DNA of 54,526 nucleotides from Thelocarpon superellum (lineage: Eukaryota): the NCBI GenBank assembly GCA_026025795.1, contig JAPEUG010000078.1, forward strand, positions 1 through 54,526, given 5' to 3'. Made by a program: the position numbers and the translations under genes. Below, one piece after another: positions 4,806 through 10,256 of this stretch; the first letter of the stretch is position 1, and every line of letters begins with the position of its first letter. The notes beneath the pieces are model-generated. The model did not search any database. It had not been told where the DNA came from and saw only the letters and a list, made by a program, of their open reading frames with translations.

Positions 4806-5630
4806 GGTGGGTGGCGTGCGCGATGGACGATGAAATGAAGGATGATTTTCTCGCCGTGAATCTAATGGCGGGGCGATCCAGCGGCGATGGATGATACGAG
4901 AGATATGGGGATGAAGTGGATGAAGTGTTGATGCGTTGCGGAAGGGTGGTGGAGATGGAGAGAGATGAATATGATGCGTGTGGTGAAGAGAGAAGATGGT
5001 GGTGGGGAGGGGTGAAATCACTGGAGGCGGGGAGGCTATATAGGGGCAAGAATTTCAGCGTCCCAACTGCCACCATCCCAAGGGGGAAGTAGCGATGGGG
5101 AGAAGCCACACGCTCTGTTGACCCAACACAACATTCCCAAACGCCGAGGCGGTCCGTCGCCTGGTGCAGGACGTCTTGCAGATAGAGGTCAAGGGAAGAA
5201 TCTGAAGAGGTAGCCGGCCGATCCCACCATTGAATGTCTGGATTCGCCGCCACTGTGGCCCCTCCCAAAGTTGCTCAATCCACCGGCTGATGTCATTCTC
5301 CCGATACGGTTGAACTGGGGTGATTGGACGGCGTGGAAGATGCGTGAATGATGAGGCAGGCCATGGACAGCGCTCTGCACAGCGACATTGATGCGTCCAC
5401 ACCTAAACTTGTTTCTCGTCCGACCATCTGATGCCTCGCTTACAGGGATTGTCGTCACTGCGATTGTGCCGGACGGTGGGGGGAAGTGGTGAAGTCAGGC
5501 CCATCTCGGTGTTGTTTTGTTTTCTCGCTCAGATCTCATCCGCCCACCACGGCGAACTTGAGGCCCTGGAGCGACCCACGGACTAATCCTTCCACGCCTC
5601 CATCCGTCTGCTGCTGTAGATCCATTCATC

Positions 5631-7605
5631 ATGGCCAATGAAGAGAGACTGCCCTGGTCCTATCGGATCCGTACCCTGCTGCATGTGTCGGATGACCATC
5701 TCAACGACGAGGAGAAAGAGACGAGGCTTCGTCAGGAGCTCGAGGAGCCGGTGCACGAGAGCAGCTACGGCGTAAGTGTTCCACCTGGAAAGGTGGATGG
5801 CGCAGAGATGGATTGTTCTCATCTCATCTCGTCCCCTCGTGATGCAAGACGCAAGGGCGACCTGGTTGGGCAGCGCTGACGGTGAGGCGTGCATGCAGGC
5901 CAACGTCGTCTTCCACCATTTCCTAGACACGTCCCCGGAGAGTCCCTGCACGGAGCGGCGCCTGGTTCCGTTCGATCGCAGGCAATGGGAGCACCTTGTG
6001 AAGATGAAAGACGTGCTCGACCGACGTCGCGCGCTCATGGACCAGATCCACCAGCTCGCCACGGCCAATGACGAAGCGAAGAAGACTTTGGAGGCTCTGG
6101 TGCGACACGAGCCGGTCAAGCCTTCGGCCCTTCGTATGACGCTGGACGGGGGCGCCCTCGCCGGCCTGGCGGCCATCACGTTCAAGGACGACGGGCCGTC
6201 CGAGTCCCTGGCCGTGAAGCTTTATGCCATGAGTCAGCTCGACGCGCGGCAGCCGTACATGCCCATCTGCCCGGCGCAGACGCCCGAGGCGTGTCGCAAG
6301 GCACGCGAGACGGTGGCGAAGATGCGATATAAGCTGAAGGACGAGCCGTCGGATTGGCAGATCGACGCGGCGGTGCCGTGCGAGGACACGGTGCACTTCC
6401 AGCCCGTCATCTGCATGGATACCGATCCCGGTCTCGGTGACTGCGTCTTCCTCGATGCCTGTCCACGCCAGTGGCGTGGCTGCCGGTACGTGCACTACGA
6501 GCGCCTTCTCCCACGCACGGGCGCGTCGGTGCTGGGGATCCAGATGTTGAAACAAACCAAATGGGCGAAGAAGAACGACGTGCAACTGTTCGATCAGATG
6601 AGTCCCGAGCAGAAAGAGGCCGAACTCGAGGCGCTGACGGTCCGGCAACGTGAGTGGGCTCGGCTGGGCCCGTTCAAGCTGGGCAACGCACTGTGGGCGG
6701 GACGGCAGGTGAGGGCTCGTCAAGATCCCGGTCGCCCTTGGGTCACTGACCGATGGCCTGGACAGCCGGACCTGCCGCACTGGCACACCACAGATCTCTA
6801 TGCCTTTGACTTCAATCTGCTCGGCGAGTTTCGAGTCATCGTGGTCGCACGTATGTCGCCTCGTCCGCACTTGCGGCCGCGTGGAGAGGAGTGCTGATGA
6901 GCCATGTGCAGCGGTGTGGCCCGAGCATCCGAAGCCGCCCTACCAGACCACAGAGGAGCAGGCCCTGCGCTCCATGTCGATCGGCAATCTCGGACGTGAT
7001 GCCCTTCTCTACCTCTGGGTCAGCCAGGACAGCCTTGCCTTTGGGCGGAACTGTCTGAAGTCCTGGGGATTCCTGAGCCTGGGCGAGGTGACGTGGATCA
7101 AGACGGACCAGATGGATTATGTGACGATGCGAAAGGAGCTTCGCTATCCTGCCTTCTGGGCGAACCACGCGAGGGAGTTTTGCCTGGTGGGGTGAGTGGG
7201 CCTCCCAGCCATGTCGTGACCCCGGCGCAGAAGCCAGGTTCAGGAGCCGATGCAGAGACTGACGCACGAGACGATAGGATCAAGGGAGAACCCGTTCCCT
7301 TCACCACCTTTACCGGCGACCAAGCCACGAAGACGATCGTGGCGCCCAAAGGTGAGAAGCGCAGCAAGCCGGCCGAGTTCTACGACATGATCGACTTCTT
7401 GGCCGGCGCGAGCACGCGCAAGATCGAGGTCTTTGGTCAGGCGCGCAACGAGCGTCCGGGATGGACGACGCTGGGTCACACCGCCCCGTGTGATCCGACG
7501 TCTCTGAACAAGGAGAAGGAGGACACGCAGGCCAAGCCGGCCAAGAAGACGGGGGACGGGGGAAAGTTTAGCTGGAGCGGCAAGAGTACCCGTCGACGCA
7601 AGTGA
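5631..7605 (+). CDS. IME4/METTL3-like MT-A70 family protein with CCCH zinc fingers and a degenerate catalytic motif
   Basis: Exons 5631-5771, 5899-6850, 6912-7191 and 7278-7605 join in frame (1701 nt, 566 aa). HFQPVICMDTDPGLGDCVFLDACPRQWRGCRYVHYE resembles the METTL3 zinc-finger region. LYLWV, WIKTDQ, NHAREFCLVGIKG, SKPAEFYDMI and RKIEVFG...GWTTLG match the MT-A70 core. The DPPW position reads APVW. Confidence 0.85.
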
Positions 7606-8564
7606 TGGCGGTAGACAGAGGTAGCCAGTGGTAGATGATCATTGAACACGTCTGGACATGACCTTGTGCACCTGCGGCTCACCCTCTGCGTTCTTGCTGT
7701 CCTGGTTAGCACTTTCACATATGAGTATCACGTTGTCGACATAGGATGGGATGCAAGGCTTGGCGTGTCAATGATAACTCCAACTGATGGCATGGACAGA
7801 TGTGCGAAACATGCCCTTGCAAACTCTAGGAGCTTGTCATCATCCAAGCATGGCCCTCGGAGCACTCCAGCACTCCGTATCATCCACAGCACTTCCAGAT
7901 ATGAAATGTCCAATGTGGGCATGAAGACGAGTGACCACGCATATTACGCGAGGAGGGCGCCAGGTCGTTGACCATGCTGTTGACGATTGTGACTGGTCCT
8001 GCGCTACACTACTCTGTTAGGTCAAGCTCCTCGCATACAGGAGTACTCGGTCTCTTCATCCGCTTCTGACATTCCAGACCGGCTGAAATCAGGATGGTTG
8101 ACATTACTTCGGCCTCACATGTTTGATCACGGGCATCCCACAGATTATGTGGAACAAGGATAGAGCACTGCCTCAAGCTATGCTGTACATACTCTGGACT
8201 TAGGGACAGCTAATGTATTCTTGCACAACCGTCTTGTTGGCATCAAGAGGCATGCTTCATCACAGCATTGAATGGCACGACAGATCACGCATGTCAGTTT
8301 ACGTGTCGAGTAGGATTGCATTGCGAGTCCCACAATGACCCACTTTTTCAGGTGTGTTGGAGGACAAGGATATCTTTATACTTGCGTCAGTCCCGTTCAC
8401 CCAAGCTACAACTTGCAGCTCCTCTGTCCCCCTGACCAGTTTGTATCGAACAGTTGAGCTCCCAGCTTACAAGATCGTTCCCGCCTTAATTTGCCTCACT
8501 CTCTTCTTGAGCCGGTCGCCAAGTCCATTTGACAATCAAGGCCTCTCACCATGCATCATTCCAT

Positions 8565-8811
8565 TGTGAGGCCGGGAGCTCCACGCCTTTCTGCGAGGAT
8601 AGAAGAGGTCATGTGATGGTCATGTGATATAGCACGTGACCTGACACACTGTAAATAAACCGAGTCCCGCTGCGAGCTAGCAGAGCCCCAGCGTTCGGCT
8701 CGAGTAACACAAGGAGGCTAGCAATAGGTCTATGAGCCCTGAGGAGCCACAGAGTCAACTCCCATTGACGACGTCTACTGTTTCCGCCTAGCTGTAGGCC
8801 TCGTCGTCACA
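8565..8811. mobile_element. Possible solo LTR / retroelement relic
   Basis: 247-bp segment beginning TGTGAGG and ending CGTCACA (TG...CA with short inverted termini). It contains GGTCATGTGAT twice, CACGTGAC and GTAAATAAAC, in a gene-free stretch. No target-site duplication is visible. Confidence 0.3.
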
Positions 8812-8984
8812 CTGCACCCATATGACCTAGAGTCTTCGTATTCAATGTAATATTGAACATTCTAGTTTACATGACTTAGACCAGTACACAGACCCAGACT
8901 TGATCCTACCTTGACAATGCTGCTCTTCGACCTCGTCGAGATTGATGAGCATCCAGATTTTCGACATTTTCCCGGTTGTTGAAA

Positions 8985-9083
8985 TATTCATCGGGCAAAG
9001 ATTATTGGATAACGCAAAGATACTGGATACCGCAAAGAATATTGGATAACGCAAAGAATATTTCATAACGCAGAGAATATTTG
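8985..9083. repeat. 18-19 bp minisatellite, about 4-5 degenerate copies
   Basis: TATTGGATAACGCAAAGA / TACTGGATACCGCAAAGAA / TATTGGATAACGCAAAGAA / TATTTCATAACGCAGAGAA, preceded by the more diverged TATTCATCGGGCAAAGAT. Confidence 0.85.
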
Positions 9084-10256
9084 ATTGTTTAGACGAAAAC
9101 CACTCATATCTCGTCCTGTTGGCCGTGGAGAGCTCTACATGACCGATTTTCATCCTGCACGTATCCACCTTGACGCAGCGTCGAGCTTTGCGAGAATTTG
9201 TATCACCCGCTCCACGACGTTCGATTACAGCCTCAGCTGCTGATGGATGAAGTACTGGCAAACGCGCCCAAATTGAGAATGTTTTCCGTCTCACAGTGGC
9301 GCCTAAGCCTCGCTCCTGCACCTCCTCCACTCACAGTCACACCTCCTACCTTCTCACCGCCACAGTGCCATCCTCCTACTCCTTTAGTACGCGAACGCGT
9401 CCGCACTCTCTCCCACTTCCTCTCTCCAACCAAACACAACACATTCACTCCAAGCTTAGATACGTGTCTTCGACCGGAAAGAGACAGAAGGGCTAATTGG
9501 CTGGCAACGATCCATCTCACGTCCAAGCTGTCCAAGTGAGCCCACTCCTCCCCGTCCGAGCCCGGTAACAGTAGCTAATTGAACCTTGCAATCCTGGCCA
9601 AGAGCGAAGGGGACAAGACTTCTTCGTGCTTTGCAGCTCGTGCACATTCCACCGCGGCCCACCCACGAACGCGAACGCGAACGCGAATGACATGGTGGGC
9701 GGAGGCTCCAAGACTTCCGGGTCAGAGTCGAAGTCTGGATCAGGCCCCGACAGCAGGAAATGTAGTTCGACGGACGTGCGCGGACCGACTGCCTGCCCTC
9801 AGCCAGTGCTCCGTGGCGGGGTAGGAGGGTCTTTCAGCCCGCTTCATCAGAGCTGAAGATTCACGAATGAAGCAAGTCAAATCTCCTCCATGGCTTGTGC
9901 TTCTGACGATAGATCCTCGATGCAATTTAGAGCTACATACAATGGCCCCCCAATCTTCACGCTGCGTCGTCGCATGTGACCCGGGAAAGGGGATGACAAG
10001 AGACTGTCGTACTAAGTCCCGAGGCATGCGAGCGAAGCGTTGAAATGCGGTGGGGGGACGGTCGGAGTGGGGTAAAGAGACAGAAGTACACAGGAGTGGT
10101 ATGGTATCAGTAGAAGAACACAGATGCAATCACTCGCGTGGAGCCAAGGTCGGGATGAGGAACGGCCGGCGGTTGGCGTCCTCGGTCTTTCCAAGCACCA
10201 CACACAAGACGTACCGCGTCGACCTGGCGTTGGCGTTCGGACATTCGCTCGGCCCT

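Follow-up and report, generated by a model that had tools for sequence, protein, structure and literature searches.

The five-exon gene at positions 5631-7605 (+) of the window, a contig of 54,526 nucleotides analysed at its full length, is best explained, with a probability that we put at roughly 0.55, as encoding a non-catalytic, RNA-binding derivative of Ime4 that probably remains functional. Its methyltransferase (MTase) domain has lost, in the Thelocarpon lineage, the catalytic aspartate of its DPPW motif (now APVW), two contacts to the ribose of SAM (N549/Q550 of human METTL3, now H/T), the contacts to the SAM methionine (R536/H538, now Q/R), and the GRTGH loop, through which METTL3 contacts both METTL14 and the RNA/m6A nucleotide (PMC10441475). 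With these four losses combined, and by analogy with mutagenesis of human METTL3, the Thelocarpon protein is most likely incapable of methyl transfer. The zinc fingers and the core of the fold are kept, at a near-normal rate of change, so that in all likelihood the protein is still produced and put to use, putatively as a non-catalytic RNA-binding or scaffold protein that pairs its zinc fingers with an inert MT-A70 fold.

Thelocarpon superellum is a lichen-related fungus. The product of the gene, 547 residues read from 1644 nt in frame, is letter-for-letter identical to a deposited protein (P0001, 'MAG: hypothetical protein M1838_005828 [Thelocarpon superellum]'). The gene has five exons rather than the four claimed by the initial annotation (Table 1), while the latter's description of open, in-frame exons with canonical splice sites and GC-rich third positions holds. 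All four introns are of the GT..AG type with CTGAC or CTGAT branch sites, the coding frame is open over 547 codons, and the other two sense frames contain 16 and 11 stops. GC3 is 0.805, whereas the introns stand at 0.62 and the flanks at 0.51-0.57; neighbouring genes range from 0.73 to 0.89, and the coding composition of the Thelocarpon gene is normal. The N-terminus is longer than in the clade orthologs and unaligned with them in the clade alignment, and its first 150 residues have no detectable counterpart in METTL3/Ime4. Relative to L001, an ortholog recovered from a metagenome, the Thelocarpon copy carries two additional introns; an intron of L001 coincides in position and phase with Thelocarpon intron 4, after CLVG.

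Table 1. Coordinates of the gene and its principal features in the window
Feature	Position	Strand	Description
Exon 1	5631-5771	+	Residues 1-47, begins at ATG; GC3 0.766; without homolog support
Intron 1	5772-5898	+	127 nt, GTAAGT ... GCTGAC ... CAG
Exon 2	5899-6708	+	Residues 48-317; N-region predicted to be helical, the two CCCH zinc fingers, clade-specific linker
Zinc finger 1	6268-6396	+	Ligands C171, C179, C208, H213; invariant in 8-sequence clade alignment
Zinc finger 2	6442-6495	+	Ligands C229, C235, C242, H246; invariant in 8-sequence clade alignment
Intron 2	6709-6765	+	57 nt, GTGAGG ... CACTGAC ... CAG; missing in L001 (one continuous frame there)
Exon 3	6766-6850	+	Residues 318-345 and first base of codon 346; carries D327
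Intron 3	6851-6911	+	61 nt, GTATGT ... GCTGAT ... CAG; inside catalytic-motif codons; missing in L001
Exon 4	6912-7191	+	Rest of codon 346 to most of codon 439; P346-V347-W348, Y356, MTase core strands
Remodelled loop	7121-7156	+	Residues 416-427, METTL3 interface and m6A-sensing loop (R471-H474)
Intron 4	7192-7277	+	86 nt, GTGAGT ... ACTGAC ... TAG
Exon 5	7278-7605	+	Last base of codon 439 to stop; K469, FGQARN 7432-7449, H506-T507 7477-7482

Intron 3 interrupts the codons of the catalytic motif. Exon 3 ends with Ala345 (GCA, 6847-6849) at the site where the family has its catalytic aspartate, and removal of the intron is predicted to join GCA C|CG GTG TGG into VVAPVWPEHP, exactly as the initial annotation had read it. 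Reading through intron 3 leads to a stop (ORF 5776-6897), and with the predicted splice at 6850/6912 the alignment to METTL3 runs without a gap across the junction. Because V347 and W348 are encoded in exon 4 and A345 in exon 3, no splice choice can produce DPPW; a search for an alternative splice restoring the motif found no in-frame option that yields it. A splice donor at 6844 was rejected as it shifts the frame, and the in-frame GT-AG alternative 6851-6887 (37 nt) has no branch site and yields ...ADEPCAAVW, not DPPW. An 'AD' at 6893, matched by tblastn, is part of the branch-site GCTGAT and a coincidence, since the spliced protein is gap-free and collinear with its orthologs.

It could be argued that the altered motif is an artefact, in which a misassembly, a faulty annotation or a contaminant contig conceals a real gene bearing DPPW; the source is, after all, a metagenome-assembled genome and the splice model is computational. 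We consider this very improbable. Positions 6390-7286 are matched with 0 differences by a contig of the probable source run, the same run covers the motif region at a word depth of ~170, and in a separate study (a moss metagenome, X2/X3) a contig of 332 nt spans 6705-7036, again with 0 differences. The motif DNA is thus identical in an independent study's contig, which argues against an assembly error, and the placement of A345 and V347/W348 on separate exons argues against an annotation error, as does the failure of the 6851-6887 alternative to supply the motif. A contaminant or chimeric contig was rejected on account of the fungal neighbour genes and the synteny with L001. Furthermore, the changes are spread through the whole domain instead of being confined to one site. 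Across ~1060 bases of the gene, the contigs vary at a single synonymous SNP (6201) and at one further, unlocated site within 5654-5903, and the 63 bases compared downstream of the gene hold 2 differences; this variation is too small to use.

The protein belongs to the METTL3/Ime4 lineage, as had been proposed, and has in common with human METTL3 and the Ime4 of yeasts an MT-A70 fold and, ahead of the MTase domain, a pair of CCCH zinc fingers. Residues 339-506 match positions 1-171 of the 172 in the Pfam MT-A70 profile (PF05063) at 101.8 bits, where the curated cut-off is 23.9, and exons 4 and 5 each match this profile alone (E 2.9e-11 and 2.6e-08, respectively). In a phmmer search of the PDB, METTL3 scored 150 bits (E 6.7e-43) and METTL14 58 bits (E 5e-15); no chain named METTL4 was among the 35 PDB sequences matched. 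Structural comparison gave the same ranking. The AF2 model (mean pLDDT 70.9, mostly >85 in the core) retrieved METTL3 chain A at each of Foldseek ranks 1-46 with TMt of 0.72-0.77 (best match: E 4e-19, TMt 0.76; 32-35% identity to METTL3), compared to 0.59 for METTL14 chains. A tblastn search of the 54.5-kb window detected this single locus and no second MT-A70 locus.

METTL14 is not known to carry the CCCH fingers. A descent from a METTL14/Kar4-type non-catalytic subunit, and not from METTL3/Ime4, would account for the degenerate donor and acceptor sites, which METTL14 shares: METTL14 carries an EPPL motif and P362/T363 at the positions of N549/Q550, and T507 of the Thelocarpon protein equals the threonine that METTL14 has at the Q550 position (PMC5023411, METTL14 residues as given there). 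This descent is nonetheless scarcely credible. METTL3 outscores METTL14 in both sequence and fold, the fingers are of the METTL3 type, and the protein nests among ascomycete Ime4 proteins in trees composed of METTL3-lineage hits only. A catalytic-subunit origin also follows from the syntenic orthologs, which bear DPPW. The very loop of METTL3 that faces METTL14 is remodelled in the Thelocarpon protein. MTA1, like the Thelocarpon protein an MT-A70 protein from filamentous ascomycetes, belongs to the separate METTL4 clade and is the sole MT-A70 protein reported for Pezizomycotina in the published survey (PMC10826363), whereas the Thelocarpon protein matches METTL3.

The closest kin of the protein make up a small clade within Pezizomycotina, comprising Trichoglossum hirsutum (P0002/P0152), L001, P0005, and Candelaria pacifica (P0003), all with its architecture and with a linker peculiar to this clade. 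Gene order in L001 matches that of the Thelocarpon contig over three genes: a kinase upstream, the MT-A70 gene, and a nucleoplasmin-like gene downstream. DPPW is kept in Trichoglossum, L001, and P0005, and for the first two, unlike Thelocarpon, this conservation extends to GNQ and to 57 of the 58 family-conserved positions. Candelaria reads NAPA at the motif and histidine at N549, and keeps 40/58. In the trees (IQ-TREE quick runs, with SH-aLRT as the only support), Thelocarpon, Candelaria, P0005/L001, and Trichoglossum group together (98 and 91) before Pyronema joins; the group lies inside the ascomycete Ime4 clade (SH-aLRT 94) with Saitoella and Saccharomycotina, and the placement is unchanged when Candelaria is removed (95). 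FastTree unites Thelocarpon and Candelaria (95, with a flag for the meeting of long branches), and IQ-TREE does not resolve them together; taken singly, each attaches beside P0005/L001. They share 8 identical derived residues, N549H included, against 39 positions changed to different residues. The motif was lost either once or twice in the clade, giving APVW in Thelocarpon and NAPA in Candelaria.

Sequence and gene order together mark the gene as the positional ortholog of fungal IME4, carried by a small relict clade within Pezizomycotina. The suggestion that it might represent a general feature of filamentous ascomycetes does not survive this distribution: a survey across 829 species of fungi concluded that Pezizomycotina have lost both IME4 and KAR4, retain MTA1 only, and are also without WTAP/Mum2 (PMC10826363). 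Trichoglossum, Candelaria, Thelocarpon, and a UniProt id gave 0 matches in the searched part of the supplements to that survey.

All three motif changes noticed at the outset are borne out by phmmer alignment to human METTL3, in which A345-P-V-W348 pairs with D395-P-P-W398 (DPPW to APVW), F491-GQARN496 with F534-GRPHN539 (FGRPHN to FGQARN), and L504-GHT507 with L547-GNQ550 (LGNQ to LGHT). An aspartate occupies the first motif position in 144 of the 147 METTL3-lineage rows that cover the site in a 154-sequence alignment (MAFFT FFT-NS-2); the exceptions are the Thelocarpon protein, its Candelaria relative, and P0134, where an exon has apparently been mispredicted. Among the SAM contacts, N549/Q550 are replaced by H506/T507, R536 by Q493, and H538 by R495, and further changes from METTL3 affect P397 (V), L409 (T), and S511/H512 (R/S). 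The SAM-adenine contact is kept (D327, METTL3 D377), as are W348 (W398), Y356 (Y406), K469 (K513), F491 (F534), N496 (N539), E489 (E532), and the equivalents of P396, W475, N477, H478, and E481.

The motif losses described by the initial annotation thus stand, and what it missed is their extent, which reaches the interface and m6A-sensing loop and 18 of the 58 conserved positions, which fall in the catalytic and interface loops as well as in the core. Only 40 of the 58 are kept, against a family median of 57. In the loop, GRTGH is replaced by KELRY together with a 3-residue insertion, and pLDDT falls below 50 over residues 416-430. The positions of R471-H474, I400, M402, and T433 read E421, L422, R423, Y424, E350, P352, and S383; from the METTL3 interface and RNA-contact set, the equivalents of H478, E481, and K459 are kept. 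With the RNA/m6A-contact loop lost, any RNA-binding role of the MTase domain itself would be weakened. The idea of a dead enzyme serving as an m6A reader through the product-sensing pocket of METTL3 was rejected, as 6 of the 10 pocket residues defined for METTL3 (PMC10441475) are changed.

Mutant data for the human enzyme bear directly on these positions. Either D395A or N549A/Q550A lowers METTL3-14 activity to background (eLife 2016, PMC5023411, in the assays reported there), and the Thelocarpon active site is degenerate at exactly these alanine-sensitive positions, D395 and N549/Q550. A methyltransferase that remains active through a non-canonical motif, or on another substrate, is consequently an unlikely reading: alteration of one of the two sites suffices in METTL3 and both are changed in the Thelocarpon protein, the aspartate is otherwise almost invariant in the lineage, and P397, L409, S511, H512, R536, and H538 have changed as well. 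What such an enzyme would have to work with is the retained D327, W348, Y356, K469, F491, N496, and E489, a core fold predicted with pLDDT >90, and R495, which lies two residues from the lost R536 and, going by its position in the alignment, might partly replace it in SAM binding.

In contrast to the MTase domain, the zinc-finger half has evolved at a near-normal rate. All 8 Zn ligands are kept, so the claim that the CCCH fingers are retained is correct. Family-wide, H213 of finger 1 is 96% conserved and the ligands of finger 2, which align to METTL3, are 95-98% conserved; METTL3 288-332 and the METTL3 zinc-finger chain 5yz9 (E 4e-06) both match residues 202-248. With Trichoglossum taken as the outgroup and L001 as the comparison lineage, a relative-rate count gives the Thelocarpon protein 58 unique changes in the MTase domain versus 8 in L001, and 26 versus 13 in the zinc-finger half (p 0.053), with a significant difference between the domains (Fisher p 0.012). 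Identities to L001 tell the same story: the zinc-finger parts of Thelocarpon are 41.9% and 56.8% identical, compared to 42.6% and 51.4% for Trichoglossum, while the MTase domain is 41.8% identical, compared to 67.0%.

The main rival to a functional derivative is a decaying relic, a gene still intact yet useless and en route to the loss that nearly all Pezizomycotina have undergone, under broadly relaxed selection since its writer partners disappeared. This is possible, though we regard it as doubtful. The reported absence of IME4, KAR4, and WTAP/Mum2 from Pezizomycotina (PMC10826363, the survey results cited above) is what a relic would predict, and the terminal branch of Thelocarpon is the longest in the tree, at 3.1 changes per column versus a median of 0.76. 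Together with the roughly 2-fold excess of changes in the zinc-finger half, this branch makes some general relaxation possible. The loss of 18 of the 58 conserved positions across loops and core also fits decay, as does the parallel course of Candelaria, likewise at 40/58. On the other hand, the protein has diverged from its closest relatives at ~60% of its residues, and yet not one stop or frameshift has entered the 1644 coding nucleotides, the four introns remain canonical, and GC3 resembles that of neighbouring genes. Every zinc ligand and 40 conserved core positions persist, and the acceleration is concentrated significantly in the MTase domain, which is not the pattern of uniform neutral decay. 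With its frame open, its GC3 normal, and its zinc-finger half near the normal rate, the gene looks maintained, as had been claimed, in keeping with a functional, non-catalytic derivative of Ime4.

A broader scenario can be offered tentatively. The catalytic-subunit lineage of the m6A writer may itself have been turned into a pseudoenzyme, once or twice, in relict Pezizomycotina that kept Ime4 when the rest of the subphylum lost it, with the dead protein preserved as an RNA-binding or scaffold protein that relies on its zinc fingers. The further roles suggested by the initial annotation, as an allosteric partner, a decoy, or a component of a rewired meiotic complex, are speculative. The protein may even serve as an inert partner of an MTA1/METTL4-type enzyme, in which case a METTL14-like role would have evolved anew from the METTL3 side.

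To our knowledge, every natural MT-A70 pseudoenzyme recognized until now, METTL14/Kar4 for instance, is a partner subunit, and our literature search found no paper describing a catalytically dead Ime4 ortholog in Pezizomycotina. Despite the loss reported for Pezizomycotina (PMC10826363), Thelocarpon, Candelaria, Trichoglossum, Pyronema, and Geopyxis still possess a gene that clearly belongs to the Ime4 lineage; its placement is vertical and, wherever DNA can be compared, it is syntenic. These survivors constitute a dated series of stages in the dismantling of the m6A writer. The Thelocarpon case, in which a catalytic subunit appears to persist without catalysis but with constrained zinc fingers, is a natural experiment on what METTL3 has been proposed to do independently of methylation; the intact ortholog of Trichoglossum and the apparently dead ones of Thelocarpon and Candelaria provide a ready comparison set.

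The MT-A70 gene of Thelocarpon superellum encodes a protein of the METTL3/Ime4 lineage, not of METTL14/Kar4. The product scores 101.8 bits against Pfam MT-A70 (cut-off 23.9), and its best match among PDB sequences is METTL3 (150 bits, E 6.7e-43), compared with 58 bits for METTL14; no chain named METTL4 occurs among the 35 matched PDB sequences. The METTL3 match comprises two stretches, the MTase domain (residues 321-507) and the second CCCH zinc finger (202-248), the latter also matching the isolated METTL3 zinc-finger chain 5yz9. With the AlphaFold2 model (mean pLDDT 70.9; MTase core mostly >85; <50 in segments 351-356 and 416-430), Foldseek ranks 1-46 are METTL3 chains at TMt 0.72-0.77, whereas METTL14 reaches 0.59. 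Every sequence of the clade alignment has all eight zinc ligands (C171, C179, C208, H213; C229, C235, C242, H246). Both the lineage and the retained fingers proposed in the initial annotation are thus borne out, and the METTL14 scores leave a Kar4-type subunit scarcely credible.

The computational gene model has five exons rather than the four first proposed, and four short introns with fungal-type signals (5' GTAAGT, GTGAGG, GTATGT, GTGAGT; branch site CTGAC/CTGAT; 3' AG). Its spliced frame of 1644 nt (547 codons) yields a product letter-identical to the database protein P0001, 'MAG: hypothetical protein M1838_005828 [Thelocarpon superellum]', itself a computational model. Other large frames in the window code for proteins usual in fungi (KAR9, REV1, MED14, TAF1-type DUF3591, ATG22, a protein kinase), and the NCBI taxonomy assigns T. 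superellum to Thelocarpales, Pezizomycotina. The N-terminal region of 150 residues is longer than that of every clade relative; no homolog of it was detected, and the AlphaFold2 model shows long helices at residues 74-115 (pLDDT near 70). The spacer to the downstream nucleoplasmin-like gene is ~2.6 kb, compared with ~1.3 kb in L001, a metagenome DNA record with a syntenic ortholog; it has low GC (0.51 for 7606-8800) and holds a 162-aa open frame without a Pfam match.

Features of the MT-A70 locus and states of METTL3 residues in the Thelocarpon protein
Feature	Position	Strand	State or remark
Exons of MT-A70 gene (n=5, computational model)	5631-5771, 5899-6708, 6766-6850, 6912-7191, 7278-7605	+	
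Segment encoding residues 1-110	5631-6090	+	
Introns 2 and 3	6709-6765, 6851-6911	+	absent from L001 (3001-3870)
Spacer	7606-10250		
Open frame in spacer	8842-9330	-	162 aa
METTL3 residues	D377, Y406, K513, F534		kept
METTL3 residue	I378		Leu; main-chain contact
METTL3 residue	P397		Val
METTL3 residue	L409		Thr
METTL3 residue	S511		Arg
METTL3 residue	H512		Ser
METTL3 residue	R536		Gln
METTL3 residue	H538		Arg
METTL3 residue	N549		His
METTL3 residue	Q550		Thr

At the predicted junction, splicing of intron 3 joins GCA C/CG GTG TGG to give FRVIVVAPVWPEHPKPPY, as originally claimed; read-through meets a stop, and removal of the intron produces alignment without gaps to human METTL3 and all orthologs. 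Ala345 is encoded by exon 3, Val347 and Trp348 by exon 4, and DPPW is therefore unreachable by any splice-site choice. The sole other in-frame GT-AG pair (6851-6887) spans 37 nt, lacks a branch site and yields no DPPW. Phmmer alignment sets A345-P-V-W348 on METTL3 D395-P-P-W398, FGQARN on FGRPHN (534-539) and LGHT on LGNQ (547-550), in agreement with the initial reading. Intron 3 interrupts precisely the codons that once specified the catalytic motif; intron 4 alone is common to this gene and L001. Across the 3' end of intron 3 (6893-6919), the exon 4 frame reads ...SADEPCAAVW, whereby a tblastn match stretches to an intronic 'AD'. This was judged a coincidence, its GAT belonging to the branch-site GCTGAT.

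Assembly error, a concern raised at the outset, was also checked. One contig from the probable source run covers 6390-7286 with 0 differences, and a 332-nt contig from another study's runs (moss metagenomes X2/X3, which may be a single data set deposited under two entries) matches 6705-7036, likewise with 0 differences. A look-up of sequencing runs containing the stretch listed no RNA run. Given this identity in an independent study's contig, and no splice that restores DPPW, an artefact is very improbable. Over 5400-7800, low-depth contigs in the moss-metagenome runs X2-X4 are at least 99% identical to the window, with one synonymous difference within the gene (6201, C>G) and 2 differences in the 63 bases covered downstream.

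Asp occupies the first motif position in 144 of the 147 rows covering it in a 154-sequence alignment, the remaining three being the Thelocarpon protein, Candelaria and P0134, apparently a mispredicted exon. Across 137 other lineage members, 58 columns reach 90% identity or more; Thelocarpon and Candelaria each keep 40 of these, against 57 in Trichoglossum and L001, 52 in Pyronema and a median of 57. The structural account in PMC5023411 names the METTL3 residues in contact with SAM or capping the cofactor once bound, and its mutant data put D395A, or N549A/Q550A, at background activity; the states tabulated here were mapped via the phmmer alignment to METTL3. The METTL3 loop G470-R-T-G-H474 has become K-E-L-R-Y with a three-residue insertion, and the I400, M402 and T433 positions are likewise altered, so that degeneration includes the motif changes initially noted but is wider, reaching the interface loop and these three residues. 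The pocket description in PMC10441475 assigns loop 470-474, I400, M402 and T433 to a METTL14-facing, RNA- and m6A-contacting METTL3 pocket; 6 of the 10 pocket residues it names are altered. An m6A-reader role via this sensing pocket is unsupported because the pocket has been remodelled. By analogy with the human METTL3 mutants, the Thelocarpon protein would be catalytically inactive; that it is a still-active enzyme is improbable.

Searching 1.84 billion representatives with HMMER produced 2052 matches at E <=0.001, four of them above the general METTL3 background: P0002 from Trichoglossum hirsutum (E 1.8e-69), P0003, a Candelaria pacifica MAG protein (E 1.2e-62), P0005 (E 4.4e-54) and P0004, a firefly METTL3 in which one segment is duplicated and which was set aside. 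L001, found in a metagenome-collection scan, shares three collinear genes with the window (kinase, MT-A70 gene, nucleoplasmin-like gene) and has intron 4 at the same position and phase. Motif state in orthologs, a comparison suggested with the initial annotation, proved divided: Trichoglossum, P0005 and L001 keep DPPW, and Trichoglossum and L001 keep GNQ, whereas Candelaria has also lost DPPW (NAPA) and has GHQ for GNQ. Candelaria P0003 further shows Y406 to Cys and N549 to His. The Thelocarpon and Candelaria proteins have 8 identical derived residues, including N549H, and differ at 39 co-changed positions; the motif may have been lost once or twice.

In IQ-TREE quick searches with SH-aLRT supports only (42 rows, all of the METTL3 lineage; 363 columns, LG+C20), Thelocarpon, Candelaria, P0005 and L001 group together (98), joined by Trichoglossum (91) and then Pyronema (84), the whole assemblage lying within an ascomycete clade (94) that includes Saitoella and Saccharomycotina Ime4 proteins. 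In the absence of Candelaria, the Thelocarpon protein again stands beside P0005/L001 (89; 95 with Trichoglossum), and so does Candelaria in the absence of Thelocarpon; the placement is therefore not merely long-branch attraction. Vertical descent of the Ime4 gene in the Thelocarpon clade fits these data. The available text of PMC10826363 describes MTA1 (METTL4 clade) as the sole MT-A70 protein of nearly all Pezizomycotina, with IME4, KAR4 and WTAP/Mum2 lost, and the available part of its supplement text makes no mention of Thelocarpon, Candelaria or Trichoglossum. Lichinomycetes s.l. (Diaz-Escandon et al. 2022, as presented in the available text of PMC12238968) unites lineages including these three, a union that PMC12238968 disputes. 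Two Pezizomycetes, Pyronema omphalodes (P0080) and Geopyxis carbonaria (P0126), have partial Ime4-lineage MT-A70 proteins with Asp kept. Ime4 retention in Pezizomycotina is therefore wider than the Thelocarpon clade and contrasts with the loss published for the subphylum. The short predicted proteins P0111/P0154 and P0120 correspond to clade members over the zinc-finger half alone and then run into unrelated residues; either truncated gene models or genuine truncation of the gene in further relatives may account for them.

The frame is open across all 547 codons, whereas the other two sense frames contain 16 and 11 stops. GC1/2/3 is 0.63/0.44/0.81; GC3 in neighbouring genes is 0.73-0.89, and GC is 0.62 in introns and 0.51-0.57 in flanks. 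Relative to the outgroup Trichoglossum, unique changes in the MTase domain (321-507) number 58 in Thelocarpon and 8 in L001; in the zinc-finger half (152-320) the counts are 26 and 13 (binomial p 0.053), and the regions differ (Fisher p 0.012). Candelaria follows the same pattern (43 vs 7 and 20 vs 12, p 0.018), its acceleration too being confined to the MTase domain. Identity to L001 in the MTase domain is 41.8% for Thelocarpon and 67.0% for Trichoglossum, whereas in the two zinc-finger parts Thelocarpon (41.9% and 56.8%) equals or exceeds Trichoglossum (42.6% and 51.4%). An unbroken relic under broadly relaxed selection, the main rival, is less probable, since even decay is expected of a dead gene and change here is concentrated in the MTase domain; the RNA-binding half thus appears still held and the catalytic half released. 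We favour, at a probability of roughly 0.55, a catalytically inactive Ime4/METTL3 ortholog that is still expressed, in which catalysis would have been lost from the MTase domain while the zinc fingers and inert MT-A70 fold were retained for a putative non-catalytic role centred on the fingers.

The database entry carries no annotation beyond 'hypothetical protein', and a literature search retrieved no account of an Ime4-lineage gene in Thelocarpon-clade fungi and no description of a natural METTL3-lineage pseudoenzyme. METTL14 is likewise an MT-A70 pseudoenzyme, but the Thelocarpon protein differs in deriving from the catalytic lineage. The finding would represent a METTL3-lineage pseudoenzyme within Pezizomycotina, a subphylum from which that lineage is said to be absent, and, as judged from the sequence of one MAG, may offer a clear-cut evolutionary example that brings its own comparison set.
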